Shown piece after piece: positions 1 through 6,000 of a stretch of DNA of 28,857 nucleotides. The position numbers were made by a program. The stretch is taken from assembly GCA_042217695.1 (NCBI GenBank), contig JBDGSE010000002.1, forward strand, positions 1 to 28,857. Direction: 5' to 3'. The stretch comes from Candidatus Nanohaloarchaea archaeon. GTDB taxonomy: Archaea > Nanohalarchaeota > Nanosalinia > Nanosalinales > Nanosalinaceae. The stretch's first letter is position 1, and each line of letters opens with the position of its first letter.

Positions 1-3000
1 TTGTTGTTAGACATATTACCACTCTACAGGTAAACTTTAAATAGGTGGTGAGCCGTACCGAAAAGTATTAAAGGCGATTTTCTGCTTCCTCTAGAAACCG
101 GCTAAACCGTTTTTCCGGAGGCTGTACGCCTGGTCGCCGACTATGACGTGGTCCAGCACACGGACGCCGAGTCTCTCACCCAGCTCCCGGGCCTCCCGTG
201 TGGCCTGGAGGTCTGCCTCTGTCGGCCTCGACTTCCCCGAAGGGTGGTTGTGCGCTATTATTACTGCAGCTGCCTTCGAAACTATTCCGCGTCGGAACAG
301 CTTTTTCAGGTCCATTTCCACCGAGTCGATGCCTCCCGTGTACTCCTCCTCCGTGATCAGGTGGTTCCCCGAGGACAGGTAGAACGTCCTCAGGCGCTCC
401 TCTTTCAGGAACTTCATGTCTGCGACCCGGTCCATCACGTCTGCCAGGGTCTCCAGCTTCTCCTTCTCCGATTTCTTGGTGCGGAGCGCCAGTTCTCCCA
501 CTGCCTTCAACTGACCTGATTTTACCTGTGAGATGCCTTCGAAGCCCTCCAGCTGTTCGCGTTCCACCGTCGCCAGGTCGGCCAGGGCGAAACGGTTCAG
601 TATCTCGGCGGCAAGTTCCTTCACGTTTTTTCCCGAAGTTCCAGTTCTAAGTACTATAGAGAGCAGTTCCACGTCTGAAAGATTGGAGACGCCGATATCC
701 TCCATCTTTTCACGGGGTCGCTCTCCCTGAGGCAGGTCTTTAATCCTGTAATCCACGTTTTCCTGTTTAAATTTCTGGTATAAATAGATGGTTGCAGCGT
801 CAGAGCTAAAAGATTTCTTTCCCGAGTCAGGGGTGTGAAAGATATCCTGGAAGACCCGGTTTTTGAAGAGGCCGCGGAACTCCTGCGGGAGTACCTTTCA
901 AGGGAATACACTGTCCAGATCAACGGCCTCTGCTCTGTGAACTACCAGGGCCGGGCGAAGTCAAAGCTCGACCGGGGTGAACGTCTGGTGATCAAGAAAC
1001 AGGACTCCGCCCTTCTCGTCCATGGGCCTGAAAACTACCAGCCGAAGAACTGGCAGCCGGAGGTCGATTCCTACAGTGTTTCTGTGGACGACGACTCGGT
1101 GGTCCTGAAGGCGGAGAGAAACGATCCGGAGGAGGTCGTGGAGATACGGTTCGAGGACATCGATCTTGTAACCGTGGACCAGCTGGTGGACAAGTCCGAC
1201 CTGAAGATACGCGGCCACGAAGTGGATATACATGAATCCATCGAGGAGGACCCGGAGATAGTCGAGGAGGAACTGAAGGTCATCGAACGCGAAAGAGAGA
1301 CACCGGCAGGTTTCATCGATGTTTTCGCCCGGGACTCGGAGAACCGTTACGTTGTTATCGAGGTGAAACGCAACCCGGACTACAACACCGTTCTGCAGTT
1401 ACAGCGCTACGTGGACGAGATAGACGAGGAGTTCCAGGGTGAGGTCCGCGGGATACTTGTCGCACCCAAGATGACCCAGAAAGTTCTGAACTATCTGGAA
1501 GAACGCGACCTTGAATTCGTGGAGGTAGACATGGCCGAGGTCATCGCGTCCTATGAAGCGCTGGACCGGTCGCAGAAAGGGCTTGAGGACTTCGGCGCGA
1601 AGTACTCGACGTAAAAATAAAAAGAGGGAAAGTTTTCTAGAAGTCGTAGTGGATCCAGTACCGCTCGATCTGTTCGGCGTTCAGCCAGTGGACCTTGTCG
1701 TCCGCATCCACCTTTATGATGCCGTCTCCAAGGAACTCCGAGTTGTGCCTGTGGATCTCCGCCTCATCGCCGGAAGCGGTCCTTATCATGACTTCTCCGG
1801 TCTCCTCGACCTTCTCCTTGATCTTTTCGTACATAGAATTCACCTGTAGAACTGTTTCTCACGAAGAGTCAAAAAGCTGTGCCGATATTCCCTGAAACAT
1901 GTGTGGGATCGCGGGCGGAGAGAAAACTGAAGAATTGCTCGAACATCTACAGCACCGCGGAGTTTCTTCAGCTGTGGAGAAAGAAGGGTTCCCGCTGGGC
2001 CACATCCTTCACCCCGTTGTCGGAGAGGTCGAACAACCTCTCCAGGGCGCGGGAACACTGGTGGCGAACTGCGAGATATACAACTGGAGGGAACTCGCCT
2101 CCGAGTACGGGTTCGATGTAAGAAACGATGCCGAACTCCTGCTGGAGATGCTGGATGAAAAAGGCGTGGACGCTCTGGAGGAACTGGACGGCATATACGC
2201 CCTTGCGTACCGGCGCGACGGCGAATTAATCCTTGCTAGAGACCTCCTCGGGGTGAACCCGGTATGGTTTTCCGAGGAGCCGTTTGCTTTCGCCTCCGAA
2301 AAACAGGCGCTCGAAAAGCAGGGGATGGAGGCCCGTGAACTTCATCCCCGCCAGGTACTGAAGTACGATACCGGGACCGGGGAACGGGAGTTTGAAAGGA
2401 GAGACTTCTTCGAGGTCAGTGTCGAAGACAGGGGGCTTGAGGAGACCGCGGAAGAGATAAAGGATCTGTTCCTGGAGGCGGTGGATAAACGGGTCCCGGA
2501 TGGAGAGCTCGCCCTGCTGTTCTCCGGCGGCGTCGACTCCACCATGGTGGCGGCCGCACTGCAGGAACTCGGGAAGGACTTCACGGCCTACACCGCAGGG
2601 ATACAGCATGGTAACGTTAACGCCCCGAGAGACGTGGAGTGGGCTGAAAAAGTCGCTGAACAGATGGATATAGAGCTCCGGGTCCACGAGTCAGACCTCG
2701 AGGAGGTCGAGTCCTCACTTGAAGATATCACGGGCTGGATCTCTTCCACCAGCGTAGTAAAAAACGGGGTTGCGCTGCCTTTCCATCACGCACTGATGCG
2801 AAACCCGGAGGTTTCCAGCAGCTCCGGAAACTCTGAAAGTGTTTCATCGCGGGGAGACGAAAAGGTGGTTCTCTCGGGCCTGGGCTCGGAACAGCTCTAC
2901 GCCGGTTACGCCCGTATGCAGAACTACCTGAACAGGGAATGTATCTCCGGTTTAAGGTCTCTGTTCCACCGCGACCTCTACCGCGACAACGTCATCTCGT

Positions 3001-6000
3001 TCCGGAACGGCTACGAACTCCGGCTGCCGTTCCTCGACCAGTCCCTTGTAAAACATGCGTTGACCGTCCCGGAAGATCACAAGGTTAGGGACGACTACCG
3101 TAAATACGTGTTGAGAAAAGCGGCGGAAAAGCTTGGTGTCCCGGAGGAAGTGGCCTGGAGGAAGAAGACCGCGGCCCAGTACGGCAGCAATTTCGACAAG
3201 GCCATCGACCGGCTGGCAAAGGATGCTGGGTACAGCCACAAGCAGGAGTACCTGAACTCTTTCTACTCCCGGCCCAACAACAAACTGGTCGCGTTGAGCT
3301 CCGGCGGCAAGGACTCGAACGCCGCCCTTTATCGTGTGAAACGCAGGAACAACGAGATCTCATGTATACTTAACATGAGGAGCGAGAACCCTGACAGCTA
3401 CATGTTCGATTCGAGGGAGTCGCAGACGGTGAGAAAACAGGCGGAGGAACTCGGCGTCCCGCTCATCACGCAGGAGACCGCGGGCGAGAAAGAGAAAGAG
3501 CTGGAAGACCTTGAATCAGGGTTGAGAAGGGCCGTGAACCGTTTCGATGTTGAAGGGGTTGTCGCCGGTGCGCTTGCCTCCACATACCAGCGTGACCGCG
3601 TGGAAAAAGTCGCGGAGCGCGTGGGGCTGAAAGTGTTCGCTCCACTCTGGCAGGAGGACCAGGAACGTTACATACGCTGGTTGATCCGGGAGGGCTTCGA
3701 GATAGAGATAACAGAGGTCGCGGCAAGAGGGCTCGACGAGTCCTGGGAGGGAAAAATCCTCGATGAAGGTTCTGTCGAGGAACTTATCGAGCTTTCCAGA
3801 GAATACGGTTTCAACGCGGCAGGTGAGGGAGGAGAGTATGAGACCCGGGTAACCGGGTTCCCCTCCTAGAGCACCTCGAACTGTCTCAGCAGCCCGGTTA
3901 AACCGACGAATATCAGCAGTATGCCTCCGAGCTGCGGTATCACTGAGTAGAGGCGAGGCCATACGAACGGCAGGTGGTACTGGACCACCGCGAGATCCAT
4001 GACCTCGGATACCGCTATGAGGAAGAGTCCCACGACTGAAAGCGTGGAGAACTCTCTTATCGCCCCGCCGACCTCTGATTCAAGGGACTGGTGAATCCTC
4101 CACTGTTTCGCAAGGAAGTAGACCACGACTCCGATAACGGCGAACTGCATGACCCAGTCGACCGGCAGGTAACCTACTGCACTCATTCTATATCACCGAA
4201 CCTCCTGAAGTATTTCTGGGTCGCCCAGAACAGCATCACGTATCCGAAGAGTTCAAAGCTGGCGACCATCGTCCTCAGGGACGGTGAGTACATGATGGGC
4301 TGGAAGATGTGGTACACTGCATGGAGTGTATGGGCGAACTGCGCCACGGTCAGGAACACGACTCCTATGAACGCCGAGGTGAATACGTGATCGGCTCCCA
4401 GCTGCCTCCACGACTTGAAGAGAGCGTAGCTCATTGCGAGAGTTACCAGGGCCAGCAGCATCGAACCAGGGATGCACAGACACGTGAGCGGAAGCAGTGC
4501 TACCATACCCCTCTTTCACCCCGGTAGTATCCTGCTGCGAGCCCAAGCAGCATCCAGCCTCCAACGGCGTAGTACATCGTCGTGGTGGACAGCACCGCCG
4601 TCACCTTGGCCAGCGCCAGGAACTTCAGGACGGAGTAGGTGAAACCTCCGGCTATGAACCCTATCGAGGGTATCATCACCGCCTTTTCTGGCCACATCGG
4701 TATATCCCAGAAGAAACCGAAGGAGAGGAATCCTCCGACCACTATCCAGATGAATGCCCACCAGGACGCCGTCTGTATGTTGCTGAGAGGTATCTTGCCT
4801 TCCACCGTCTTCTGGCTGTAGGTGCTTTCCTGCTTGGCGGGCAGGTCGTGAGCAAACCAGCCGTAGAGACCTACCAGCGTACTTACCAGCACGAAGACCG
4901 TGACGACCTTGTAAAGATTTTTCACATACTCAGTTTTTCAGACTCCTTTTTAAACCGTAGTTGACTGGGAAGTAACCTGGTTACCGGACAGTCAGGTCGC
5001 ATCCTCCTCCCAGCCCTCTGTCACGATGCGTTCTTCTTCGACACCCCTGTCTTTCAGTAACTCTTCGGCGTCCACCACGGCCTGGGGCACACCACAGACG
5101 TAGAATATCCTGTCATCAAACGAGTCGAGCACTTCGGGAAGATGTTCCTGTATGTGGCCCTCTCTCCCCGACCAGGATTCATCGCTCAGCGAGTACACGA
5201 CCTCGAGTTCCGGGTGCTCCGCCTCGAGCTGGTCCAGGGTCTCCTGGAAGAGCAGGTGTTCTCGTGTCTTCTCCCCGTGGAAATACCAGGCCTTCCCGGA
5301 GCCATTCTCCAGGTAGTCTTTCAGCATCACGAACATCGGGGTGGCTCCCGTGCCTGTGGATATGAAAACTGCGTCTCTGTCGTAGTCGCGGATGTAGAGG
5401 TTGCCCTCTGGTTCCTCCACCTCGACCTCATCGCCGATTTCGCGGTCGTGCATCCAGACAGAGGCATTCCCGTCCTCGTACCTTTTTATGGCGAGAGTGA
5501 ACCTGTCCTCGCCGGGCAGGTTCGTCGGTGTGTACGGCCGGACAACTTCCTCCCCGTCTTTATCGAACCTTATGTGGGTGTGCTGACCCGGTTTGAAATC
5601 CCATTCATCGTTCTCCAGCCGGAGCAGGAACTGTTTTACCTCGGGCGTTATCTTTCTCCAGGATTCAAGTGTTGCGGTGTCCCAGGACATGTATTGGAAT
5701 TAAATACTACATTTATCCATCTTTTGGCTCAGACCAGAAGGGCCACGAGGAATGCCACGAGTATCGAACCGGTCAGCAGCGCCTGGAACAGCCCCGAGGC
5801 CAGAACTCCCGCGGTTCCGTACACCGCTGCCTTTACACTGGATTCGTGCTCTCCCGTCCTCAGGTACTCCCGGATGAATACGGTCCCGGCGATACCGATC
5901 AGAAGCCCTGCAGGACCTGAAACAAGCATCAACAGGAAACCGGCGATAGCGGCCATCGCTGTCGTCCGGGTCGAGGCACCTCCCTGCTTCGCGGCTATCG

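Follow-up and report, generated by a model that had tools for sequence, protein, structure and literature searches.

Glutamine-dependent asparagine synthetases such as Escherichia coli AsnB (1ct9) and human ASNS (6gq3) place a PP-loop synthetase domain after an N-terminal Ntn glutaminase, the nucleophile of AsnB being Cys1. Stand-alone archaeal Dph6 proteins (PF0828/PH1257, structures 3rjz and 2d13, and the MJ0570 family) carry a PP-loop of their own together with the motifs SY, YQ and GEGGExET. Fusions of the two, with the order GAT-II, Asn_Synthase_B_C PP-loop and DUF71, were published by de Crécy-Lagard et al. (2012, Biol Direct 7:32; PMC3541065) from Methanohalophilus mahii, Methanosalsum zhilinae and the nanohaloarchaeon 'Ca. 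Nanosalinarum sp. J07AB56'; glutamine was proposed there as the ammonia donor, and a reviewer raised the question of which PP-loop domain consumes ammonia. That paper does not analyse individual residues of the AsnB-like half, and its main text does not mention GAT-less forms, free-standing forms or a class-I glutaminase partner. Our literature search for biochemistry on any fusion member turned up only this paper.

We analysed a gene with the same domain order from another member of the phylum of J07AB56, a Candidatus Nanohaloarchaea archaeon, in a window comprising the whole 28,857-nucleotide stretch of contig JBDGSE010000002.1. An earlier note had presented its product as a new amidotransferase form of Dph6, but both the fusion and the glutamine idea are in PMC3541065; we find no essential difference from the fusions described there, and the product is another member of that group. 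That it could act as a glutamine-dependent diphthamide synthetase is a plausible idea, and already published.

Results

A three-domain gene and its relatives

Translation of 1899..3869 on the forward strand starts MCGIAG and is stop-free across 656 amino acids, with a stop codon at its end, and the opposite strand has many stops. The class-II (Ntn) glutamine amidotransferase (GAT-II) domain lies at 1899..2423 (residues 1-175), where GATase_7 matches residues 45-139 with 60.4 bits (cut-off 25) and GATase_6 matches residues 44-134; the codon of the predicted nucleophile, Cys2, is at 1902-1904. An AsnB-like PP-loop (ATP pyrophosphatase) domain follows at 2424..3263 (residues 176-455), with an Asn_synthase match of 125.8 bits in two stretches extending as far as residue 447 and a first PP-loop, SGGVDS, at 2523..2540 (residues 209-214) that aligns with SGGLDS of E. 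coli AsnB, a solved relative of the protein (E 1.1e-21). The Dph6 (diphthine-ammonia ligase) domain occupies 3264..3866 (residues 456-656) and is matched by Diphthami_syn_2 at residues 462-652 (192.3 bits) and by NCBIfam Dph6_archaeal TIGR03679 (236.6 bits, above the cut-off of 197.3); it contains the second PP-loop, SGGKDS, at 3300..3317 (residues 468-473), and GEGGEYET at 3822..3845 (residues 642-649), seven residues before the protein end. The frame, the three domains and the motif positions 209 and 468 given in the earlier note were all recovered, and the best 120 database relatives again measured 637-693 aa with 95-100% query coverage, now from 1772 hits rather than 1426. Judged by sequence, the three-domain architecture and the Dph6 assignment hold.

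The product is 63-73% identical to the listed nanohaloarchaeal relatives. Among 70 genomes of the phylum, the fusion was matched in 6 of 8 in family f5 and in nearly all of f1, whereas f2 and f3 have just a 227-230-aa Dph6; a single uninterrupted match spanning at least residues 2-652 was counted by hand in 44 of the 70. Fixation in two families of Nanosalinales, as previously proposed, nevertheless understates the spread, since DPANN phyla commonly carry the fusion, which is present in Woese-, Nano-, Iain- and Altiarchaeota as well as in some methanogen relatives (ANME-1/Methanosarcinales). The gene described as split in G019 covers residues 2-653 in one 696-aa frame here, although that label may denote another genome.

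The Dph6 domain and the diphthamide pathway

The gene is the sole match for Dph6 (DUF71), and likewise for Asn_synthase, in the 757-kb genome, which also encodes Dph2, Dph5 and an EF-2 carrying HEDAIHRGPAQ. Over 47 aligned three-domain proteins, which define all residue counts for this form below, G470, K471 and D472 of the second PP-loop and S500, Y563, Q564 and E648 are present in 47/47, E643 in 46/47 and E646 in 45/47, and every residue that PMC3541065 assigns to the ATP site or EF-2 interface of PF0828 is retained in our protein. PF0828 aligns over 188 residues with residues 464-655 (E 2.5e-50; PH1257, 2.7e-46); compared with stand-alone Dph6, with which it shares the PP-loop, SY, YQ and GEGGExET, the product carries an N-terminal extension of 455 residues and is about 30 residues shorter at its C-terminus, where the Diphthami_syn_2 match reaches only profile position 187 of 219, as in other nanohaloarchaeal fusions.

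Fusion, Dph2 and Dph5 are retained together in family f1 (47, 46 and 41 of 49 genomes) and lost together in f4, where each was matched in 0 of the 10 genomes surveyed. In trees of the Dph6 domain the fused proteins form one group (FastTree, 101 rows, support 97; IQ-TREE split, SH-aLRT 87), and our domain falls in this clade, apart from the stand-alone Dph6 proteins of f2 and f3 in the same order. From family membership and pathway context, residues 456-656 are predicted to be the organism's only Dph6.

The N-terminal half is not predicted to be an asparagine synthetase

The counterparts of AsnB N74, E76 and D98 in the GAT-II domain are retained, as are SGGxDS, Y357, D384, R387, K429 and K449 and the interface residues E398 and R400; Cys2 is present in 45/47 three-domain proteins. 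In its own numbering the AsnB-like domain keeps D213, Y337, R362, K402 and K423, the last being the counterpart of the catalytically essential K449, and SGGVDS is found in 43-47 of 47 three-domain, 13/13 GAT-less and 19/19 free-standing forms. The GAT domain is somewhat shorter (about 175 residues versus about 195 in AsnB), Dph6 stands in place of the C-terminal ~70 residues of AsnB, and R339 and AxQYGS are conserved hallmarks of the AsnB-like family but not of AsnB. Glutamine is only presumably the amide donor, because the glutamine-anchoring AsnB Arg49 is replaced by Leu37 here and by Leu in 43/47 three-domain proteins. In the synthetase domain, Leu328 (codon 2880..2882; LSGLGSEQ aligned with LSGEGSDE) takes the place of the essential AsnB Glu348, human ASNS Glu364, and Gly351 that of Lys376. 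Most of the family has a hydrophobic residue at the first position, where the counts shown include neither Asp nor Glu; the second is mostly Gly.

Relatives annotated in databases as, for example, 'asparagine synthase (glutamine-hydrolysing)', and asparagine synthase models as the top non-Dph6 NCBIfam matches, would suit an ordinary glutamine-dependent AsnB supplying asparagine. However, the protein scores under both equivalog cut-offs (206.5 bits versus 267.1 for asn_synth_AEB TIGR01536, and 170.4 versus 499 for the second model), the Arg49, Glu348 and Lys376 counterparts are replaced, and the E364A and E364Q variants of human ASNS are reported as inactive (PMC6748925). Moreover, the genome lacks AsnRS but encodes GatB, GatE and a non-discriminating AspRS (566.6 bits), so Asn-tRNA is made by transamidation on the tRNA, with reliance on this AspRS and GatCAB. 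We consider an asparagine-supplying AsnB highly improbable; with Arg49 and Glu348 both replaced by Leu and Asn-tRNA formed by transamidation, the N-terminal half is predicted not to be an asparagine synthetase. An N-type ATP pyrophosphatase, substrate adenylation and glutaminase-derived ammonia are common to this module and to GMP and NAD synthetases, although acceptor domains and substrates differ. The idea that the AsnB-like domain displaces NadE was tested and not supported.

An autonomous family of predicted AsnB-like enzymes

The AsnB-like domain is also encoded outside the fusion. In a Woesearchaeota-type phylum, 130 of 151 sampled genomes have the domain on its own, almost always in single copy, and in about 69 of these (hand count) it is a free open reading frame of 271-404 aa without GAT or Dph6. 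All 19 free-standing proteins examined have the PP-loop, K402, R406, R339 and AxQYGS, and they carry the same signature at the AsnB E348 and K376 positions as our protein. The family has three arrangements: on its own, joined to Dph6, or joined to both GAT-II and Dph6. In the GAT-less form with Dph6 the ATP site is intact in 13/13, whereas the glutaminase-facing residues are relaxed: E373 is present in 6/13 and R375 in 4/13, against 45/47 and 46/47 in three-domain proteins. The human ASNS counterpart of E373, E414, is no more than 5 Å away from the glutaminase pocket (PMC6748925).

Because the ATP site persists when the GAT domain is lost, the AsnB-like half appears to be a second enzyme rather than just an ammonia conduit, and what had been raised earlier only as a caveat gains substance: this is, by its sequence signature, an autonomous, ATP-using DPANN enzyme family, usually free-standing at about 300 aa and without any glutaminase. 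These observations bear on the proposal of a pure glutamine-dependent diphthamide synthetase, whose AsnB-like domain would be only a substrate-less tunnel adaptor and allosteric ATP sensor passing ammonia from GAT-II to Dph6. To our knowledge an Ntn glutaminase is always accompanied by its cognate acceptor domain, and an AsnB domain would therefore have been acquired along with it; charged residues are missing from the aspartate pocket, human Glu364 lies at the lining of the tunnel exit, the junction with Dph6 is tight and conserved, and in other archaea Dph6 has a class-I glutaminase as its direct partner. Nevertheless, retention of K423, of the ATP site in GAT-less forms, and of the ATP site, R339 and QYGS in domains that have neither GAT nor Dph6 is not expected of a mere conduit, and we regard this proposal as unlikely.

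Coupling to Dph6

QYGS and SGGKDS are separated by 40-41 residues in 114/121 and 107/115 proteins, and this fixed, nearly linker-free junction suggests that the two PP-loop sites work side by side. The ASN-Dph6 association is independent of glutamine, since GAT-less forms exist and one genome encoding such a protein (G070) has no GATase_7 match anywhere. The ammonium transporter Amt was found in 0 of 70 phylum genomes and in only 1 of 38 genomes from DPANN or other groups, with or without the fusion; being nearly absent in both cases, its lack is no mark of fusion carriers.

Alternatively, two unrelated enzymes could have been fused for co-expression, with GAT-II feeding only the AsnB-like site, acting on an unrelated carboxylate, and Dph6 using free ammonia. 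Homology places the end of the AsnB tunnel at the AsnB-type site, and Su et al. in 2012 reportedly found yeast Dph6 active in vitro with NH4+ alone. Free-standing AsnB-like genes are mostly distant from dph6, in G117 about 250 kb separates the gene for GAT-ASN from that for Dph6, and four genomes (G175, G193, G228 and G234) combine a free-standing AsnB-like gene with a Dph6 frame of 415-456 aa, which matches the class-I fusion form in length; the two functions therefore need not be coupled. On the other hand, the fusion is old, arose once according to the Dph6 tree and persists across many phyla with near-invariant spacing, and such persistence usually implies functional coupling; free-standing AsnB-like genes also adjoin dph6 in G180, G126, G239, G227 and L053. 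Fusion for co-expression alone is in our view doubtful, though a serious alternative.

Dph6 with a class-I glutaminase

Dph6 is physically tied to a glutaminase in a second way, and our literature search on this pairing found no paper. Methanothrix, Aenigmarchaeota, Micrarchaeota and Woesearchaeota encode fusions of about 410-470 aa in which the Dph6 part scores 260-280 bits against TIGR03679 and the partner is a class-I GATase of unrelated fold (Cys-His-Glu triad, PF00117), C-terminal to or downstream of Dph6; GxCxG and HPE are both retained in 105/109 long relatives. In L089, L050, L056 and L057 the two are instead encoded by neighbouring, translationally coupled genes that overlap or abut, and G002, of family f3 in the same order as our genome, is one example of the coupling. 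Unlike our protein these systems lack a second PP-loop domain. The physical tie suggests glutamine-fed diphthine amidation in them, and by analogy this independent pairing supports a glutamine-fed Dph6 in general.

Discussion

We favor, with a probability of roughly 0.55, a bifunctional protein that joins Dph6 to a glutamine-hydrolysing AsnB-superfamily amidoligase other than asparagine synthetase, with a glutaminase that may serve both sites. In this protein, residues 1-455 would form the amidoligase: Cys2 would split the presumed glutamine, an interdomain tunnel like that of AsnB would carry ammonia to the intact ATP/PPi site, and this site would adenylate a non-aspartate carboxylate. Homology argues that GAT-II supplies the AsnB-like domain first. 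The Dph6 domain would adenylate the diphthine carboxylate on elongation factor 2 and amidate it to diphthamide; delivery of ammonia to this second site is possible, and the glutaminase may feed both PP-loop sites, as PMC3541065 proposed.

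A single gene encodes GAT-II, AsnB-like and Dph6 domains

The gene at 1899-3869 (+) is a single open frame of 656 codons that starts MCGIAG, and the strand opposite is closed by many stops. Its product joins in one polypeptide, in the order that defines an AsnB-DUF71 fusion, a glutamine amidotransferase domain of class II (GAT-II, residues 1-175), an AsnB-like PP-loop domain (176-455, abbreviated ASN) and a Dph6 (DUF71) domain (456-656). Pfam places GATase_7 at residues 45-139 (60.4 bits against a cut-off of 25), Asn_synthase in two stretches as far as residue 447 (125.8 bits), and Diphthami_syn_2 (PF01902) at residues 462-652 (192.3 bits against a cut-off of 23.2). 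Among NCBIfam models, the archaeal Dph6 equivalog TIGR03679 matches the C-terminal part with 236.6 bits, above its cut-off of 197.3, and the N-terminal part stays under the cut-offs of the asparagine synthase equivalogs TIGR01536 (206.5 versus 267.1) and NF006949 (170.4 versus 499). There are two PP-loops, SGGVDS at residues 209-214 and SGGKDS at 468-473. Among solved structures the closest matches are two Dph6 proteins of the stand-alone kind, PF0828 (E 2.5e-50) and PH1257 (E 2.7e-46), which align with residues 464-655; E. coli AsnB ranks next (E 1.1e-21). The open frame, the Pfam and NCBIfam matches and both PP-loops bear out the description of the gene and its domains in the earlier note.

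NucS and RadC lie upstream of the gene and small ORFs downstream, with no diphthamide-related neighbor in this part of the window. Elsewhere in the window a t6A synthesis pair, Sua5/YrdC (13823-14395, -) and Kae1/TsaD (14383-15354, -), overlaps by 13 bases, and two paralogous Na+/H+ exchanger-TrkA-N genes (10417-12066 and 12144-13823, -) are found just upstream of it. Nanohaloarchaeal fusions, the window's own (3822-3869) among them, stop a few residues past GEGGEYET, at position 186-198 of the 219 in the Pfam profile; stand-alone Dph6 proteins and Woesearchaeota-type fusions have ~30 additional C-terminal residues. One protein with an NCBI record, P0130 (1005 aa), has an SMC_N/AAA-type region of ~340 aa N-terminal to the three domains, and may be a merged gene call.

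The Dph6 domain and the diphthamide pathway

The translocation factor EF-2 carries a conserved modification, diphthamide, whose last step has to our knowledge been described solely with free ammonia. Residues placed at the ATP site or at a modelled interface with EF-2 have been listed for PF0828 (de Crécy-Lagard et al. 2012, PMC3541065); using HMMER against 3rjz together with a family alignment, we matched S44/Y45, E78, Y103/Q104 and E183/E186/E188 of PF0828 to S500/Y501, E532/E534, Y563/Q564 and E643/E646/E648 of the window's protein. The family alignment has 47 rows, the window's protein and 46 of the 59 three-domain (GAT-ASN-Dph6) representatives, with fragments and large-insert rows left out. 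S500, G470-K471-D472, Y563-Q564, G642 and E648 are invariant in 47/47, and E643, G644-G645 and E646 are retained in 45-46/47.

The fusion gene provides the only DUF71 match in the window's genome (757 kb, 82.7% complete), and the pathway partners Dph2 (contig C24) and Dph5 (contig C36) are present, together with an EF-2 (contig C32) that carries the target-His motif HEDAIHRGPAQ. In our survey of 70 genomes of the window's phylum, the distribution of the gene follows that of Dph2 and Dph5: the fusion or Dph6, Dph2 and Dph5 are found in 47, 46 and 41 of the 49 genomes of family f1, in 6, 7 and 6 of the 8 of family f5, and in none of the 10 of family f4. Taken with the conserved residues, these partners lead us to predict that the Dph6 half is a diphthamide-pathway enzyme.

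The ten f4 genomes (G003-G012) are 80-93% complete and lack Dph2, Dph5 and Dph6 alike, all of which are present in f1, f2, f3 and f5; one Nanohaloarchaeal family thus seems to have lost the entire pathway. Archaea lacking diphthamide genes are reported among the Korarchaeota, the Geoarchaea and most Asgard archaea, and the string 'Nanohaloarchae' does not occur in the text of that report (Narrowe et al. 2018, PMC6143161). Five genomes (G047:C5:19037-19663, G036:C22, G033:C12, G016:C3 and G014:C68) carry another DUF71 paralogue, 225-242 aa long, and all of them except G036 also have the fusion. The G047 copy has ~30% identity to the window's Dph6 domain and a long tree branch, and the paralogue possibly belongs to one of the non-Dph6 DUF71 subfamilies.

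GAT-II and AsnB-like residues compared with asparagine synthetase

We aligned E. coli AsnB (from NC_000913.3) with the family as a reference. The equivalent of AsnB Cys1, directly after Met in MCGIAG, is kept in 45/47 three-domain proteins; AsnB N74, E76 and D98 are also kept in the family (the window's N57 in 44/47 and D77 in 45/47). However, AsnB Arg49 (human R48) is replaced by Leu37 in the window's protein, with Leu in 43/47 followed by His38 in 39/47. In human ASNS the glutamine-recognition network is described as Arg48, Asn74, Gly75, Glu76 and Asp96 (PMC6748925). The GAT-II domain thus has the Cys, the oxyanion-hole Asn and the amino-group-binding Asp of a class-II (Ntn) amidotransferase but not its carboxylate-binding Arg, and glutamine would be the amide donor.

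The AsnB-like domain keeps the PP-loop, D238, Y357, D384, R387, K429 and K449 of AsnB, and the three-domain family also keeps the interface residues E398 and R400; an AsnB-type tunnel may well be present in the window's protein. At the phosphate-binding lysines K429/K449 of AsnB, K402 is found in 47/47 and position 423 is K in 39/47 and R in 7/47. In contrast, the aspartate amino-group pocket of E. coli AsnB, E348, D351 and E352 (human E364, D367 and E368), reads L328, E331 and Q332 in the window's protein. Of the 47 rows, 27 have L at the E348 position, four have V, and I, T and F occur in three each; the AsnB Lys376 position is mostly Gly. Substitutions of the equivalent human residue, E364A and E364Q, give inactive ASNS (PMC6748925). 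The AsnB-like half thus has the PP-loop and lysines of AsnB, lacks the acidic pocket and falls short of the equivalog cut-off, and we predict that it is not an asparagine synthetase.

No AsnRS was found in the window's 82.7% complete genome. A non-discriminating aspartate-tRNA(Asn) ligase (NF003483, 566.6 bits) is its sole synthetase of the Asx type, and it also encodes GatB and GatE (the AspRS/Gat set lies on contigs C28, C16 and C25). Asn-tRNA is therefore made via transamidation, and translation needs no free asparagine. GlnA and NadE were likewise not found at this completeness, and no Amt was found either; nitrogen metabolism in this organism is dependent on imported amides.

A missing ammonium supply might explain the fusion. 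None of the 70 genomes surveyed in the window's phylum has Amt (PF00909), fusion or not, and among the 38 genomes behind the fusion-type and stand-alone loci it is found only in an ANME-1 genome, a fusion carrier. Absence of Amt is common to fused and unfused genomes and does not discriminate between them, and we set this explanation aside. Replacement of NAD synthetase by the AsnB-like domain fares no better, since NadE is present in 29/151 genomes of the Woesearchaeota-type sample described below and 27 of those 29 also have the AsnB-like domain, which is not a complementary pattern.

The fusion is common in DPANN archaea

The fusion type is found in 47 of 49 f1 and 6 of 8 f5 genomes among the 70, and by hand count 44/70 give one uninterrupted match over at least residues 2-652. 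The other fusion-type matches are mostly cut by contig ends or broken, as in G027, which has an internal TAA; in G039 both halves are within a single 720-aa frame. Families f2 and f3 have only a Dph6 of 227-230 aa, and f4 has nothing.

Among 1.84 billion cluster representatives, 27,805 matched at E <= 0.001, and we classed the best 150 of these by three query segments: 59 are GAT-ASN-Dph6, 22 ASN-Dph6, 61 GAT-ASN, four Dph6 only, three ASN only and one GAT only. For one seemingly stand-alone GAT-ASN representative (P0172), the best 120 relatives are almost all fusion proteins of 670-730 aa. A scan with one genome per species yielded 72 loci, which we classed by tblastn with three segments as 14 complete fusions, one fusion cut by a contig end (Methanosarcinales), two ASN-Dph6 without detectable GAT, one with separate genes, and 54 with Dph6 only. 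The complete fusions are from Nanosalina (two), Iainarchaeum (three), Nanoarchaeota (two), Woesearchaeota (two), Altiarchaeota, LFW-252_1, two other archaea and an ANME-1 Methanospirareceae MAG. Of 151 genomes sampled from the phylum centred on the Woesearchaeota MAG G076, 150 match the family profile and 46 (hand count) have a full-length three-domain frame. The fusion, which the earlier note described as fixed in two families of Nanosalinales, is therefore not special to that order, since the genome scan and the 151-genome sample also place it in Woese-, Nano-, Iain- and Altiarchaeota and at an ANME-1 locus; it is common in DPANN archaea.

The AsnB-like domain occurs without its partners

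Thirteen representatives lack the glutaminase (GAT-less, ASN-Dph6) and begin directly at the AsnB-like domain. Six genomes of the 151-genome sample have frames of 479-523 aa that cover only ASN and Dph6, and in G170 the match is limited to profile positions 177-691 inside a 772-aa frame. Locus L025 has only a ~100-residue GAT remnant in which Phe replaces Cys. At L060, a GAT-less locus of Ca. ainarchaeum, the upstream gene is on the opposite strand, and there is no GATase_7 match in its whole genome (G070). A separate small GAT-II protein might serve the GAT-less forms, but beyond that negative result in G070 we found only 612- and 636-aa proteins in G071 and G072, which speaks against such a partner.

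The PP-loop, D245, K402, R406 and the QYG motif are kept in 13/13 GAT-less proteins. E373 and R375, residues that face the glutaminase in AsnB, are found in only 6/13 and 4/13 compared with 45/47 and 46/47 in the three-domain proteins; human Glu414, which corresponds to E373, is placed within 5 Å of the glutaminase pocket (PMC6748925). Relaxation of these two positions beside a kept ATP site is the pattern expected if glutaminase and synthetase are functionally coupled in the proteins that have a GAT and if, in addition, the ATP site has a GAT-independent function.

With window 2424-3263 as the query for the AsnB-like segment, 130 of the 151 genomes gave a homologue, and only five gave two matches. 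By hand count ~69 of the homologues are free-standing, in ORFs of 271-404 aa that lack both GAT and Dph6, and this is the commonest form of the domain. We compared 19 of 20 free-standing loci (L095-L114), and all 19 have the PP-loop, E331, E332, Y337, R339, Gly at the K376 position, D359, R362, K402 and R406. The AsnB-E348 position is Leu or Ile in 18/19; in the AxQYGS motif Q, Y, G and S are present in 19/19 and Ala in 18/19; E373 and R375 are found in 4/19 and 3/19, respectively. In a FastTree analysis of 146 ASN domains the 19 free-standing forms are one clade (support 96), and GAT-ASN and GAT-ASN-Dph6 forms are interspersed.

An alternative to a second enzyme is that the AsnB-like domain is a mere conduit for ammonia on its way to Dph6. 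The active site is invariant across free, GAT-less and fused forms, which speaks against the conduit and for a second ATP-using enzyme that probably acts on a carboxylate other than aspartate.

Genes recurrently found next to the 20 free-standing genes code for PUA-domain proteins (7/20), a DRG-type GTPase (6/20), HerA (directly upstream in 5/20), aIF5B (4/20) and DUF371 (3/20). These neighborhoods have a loose translation flavor, which is not decisive in such compact genomes. At L107, a PF04960-type glutaminase gene (476 aa, 2565-3995, -) lies divergently beside a free-standing AsnB-like gene (3914-4810, +); this is a third kind of glutaminase near the AsnB-like family, in one instance.

The AsnB-like and Dph6 domains are closely associated

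In Dph6-domain trees a single branch sets off all fused forms, and only L053 and two odd proteins join them on their side. FastTree with 159 rows gives a fused-side group of 101 (support 97), and a quick IQ-TREE run with 102 rows gives a split of 45 (SH-aLRT 87); the rows were picked by similarity to fused queries and from one genome scan, so that sampling is uneven. The stand-alone Dph6 proteins of f2 and f3, which belong to the window's order, lie elsewhere on the tree among stand-alone DPANN forms. The distance from QYGS to the Dph6 PP-loop is 40-41 residues in 114/121 Nanohaloarchaeal and 107/115 Woesearchaeota-type proteins, leaving practically no linker between the two domains. ASN-only and dph6 genes are adjacent on the same strand in G180 and divergent in G126, G239 and G227, and they are apart in many genomes. 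The association is old, and tight where present, but not obligatory.

L053 has in a row (+) Dph6 (149-838), a radical-SAM/SPASM protein (892-1836) and a GAT-less AsnB-like gene (1679-2638), and is adjoined by an IS605 OrfB/TnpB-type gene (2755-3918, -).

Because the active-site signature is invariant in all three forms, the Dph6 fusion recurs, is tight and has a single origin, and the free-standing genes lie near translation genes, we can sketch a bolder reading, which we think rather unlikely to be right as a whole. The AsnB-like domain would be a near-universal single-copy DPANN enzyme with its own carboxylate substrate and with work tied to that of Dph6; it could be an extra factor acting on EF-2/diphthine or on other translation machinery, and the three-domain protein would have two active sites sharing one glutaminase.

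Class-I glutaminases are paired with Dph6 in other archaea

In one representative, P0269 (408 aa), a class-I glutamine amidotransferase (PF00117) comes after Dph6. Of the 120 relatives that match P0269 best, 109 have a length of 380 aa or more, nearly all with PF01902 and PF00117, and these long forms are from Methanothrix, Aenigm-, Micr- and Woesearchaeota and Nanobdellota. Of the 109, 105 keep the GxCxG nucleophile elbow together with HPE, and across the 120 relatives SGGKDS is present in 118 and GEGGExE[ST] in all. Five Dph6-class-I fusions that we scanned score 260-280 bits with TIGR03679.

The two proteins are also encoded by overlapping or abutting same-strand genes at L050 (Thermoplasmata), at L056 and L057 (Woesearchaeota), and at L089 in the f3 genome G002, where a stand-alone dph6 (1812-2495, +) is followed by a class-I GATase gene (2492-3058, +). 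The class-I GATase genes of such pairs encode 181-188 aa, and the fused form, found in Methanothrix and several DPANN lineages, is ~410-470 aa long. In the window's phylum a class-I glutaminase does not appear to be the general partner of Dph6: the pair is found in G002 alone, and the nine other matches are weak (25-32 bits).

We found no paper on the pairing of class-I GATase with Dph6, and it is not mentioned in the main text of PMC3541065. Since the class-I GATase has no other acceptor in this pairing, comparison gives good grounds for holding that glutamine can feed Dph6. By analogy, this raises the odds that the GAT-II domain of the window's protein may also serve Dph6, in which case ammonia would be delivered to the Dph6 site.

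Relation to earlier work and implications

AsnB-DUF71 fusions were named in Methanohalophilus mahii, Methanosalsum zhilinae and 'Ca. Nanosalinarum sp. J07AB56' by de Crécy-Lagard et al. (2012, Biol Direct 7:32, PMC3541065), who distinguished GAT-II from an Asn_Synthase PP-loop domain within the AsnB part and proposed that NH3 from glutamine hydrolysis is used by both PP-loop domains. In the review printed with that paper (PMC3541065), L. Aravind asked which PP-loop uses ammonia and what the AsnB-like domain catalyses. Our search for literature on Dph6 or diphthine-ammonia ligase with amidotransferase or asparagine synthase found no work later than 2012 and no biochemical test. The earlier note read the protein as a glutamine-dependent diphthamide synthetase and an amidotransferase form of Dph6 as new. 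The domain identities and the Dph6 role in that reading stand, but both the fusion and the glutamine idea were already in the 2012 paper (PMC3541065). The window's protein is most likely bifunctional, the cell's Dph6 and a glutamine-using amidoligase of the AsnB superfamily, possibly sharing one glutaminase.

If glutamine feeds the last diphthamide step in many archaea, then 'diphthine-ammonia ligase' has glutamine-dependent forms, reached by two unrelated archaeal routes, a class-II glutaminase with an AsnB-like module and a class-I glutaminase, and this would be another convergent recruitment of glutaminases by PP-loop enzymes. The glutamine idea for this fusion is itself 14 years old. The more useful point is the AsnB-like domain, a strongly conserved and probably ATP-using enzyme in 130/151 sampled small-genome archaea of one phylum, which is annotated as asparagine synthase or absorbed into 'diphthine-ammonia ligase'.
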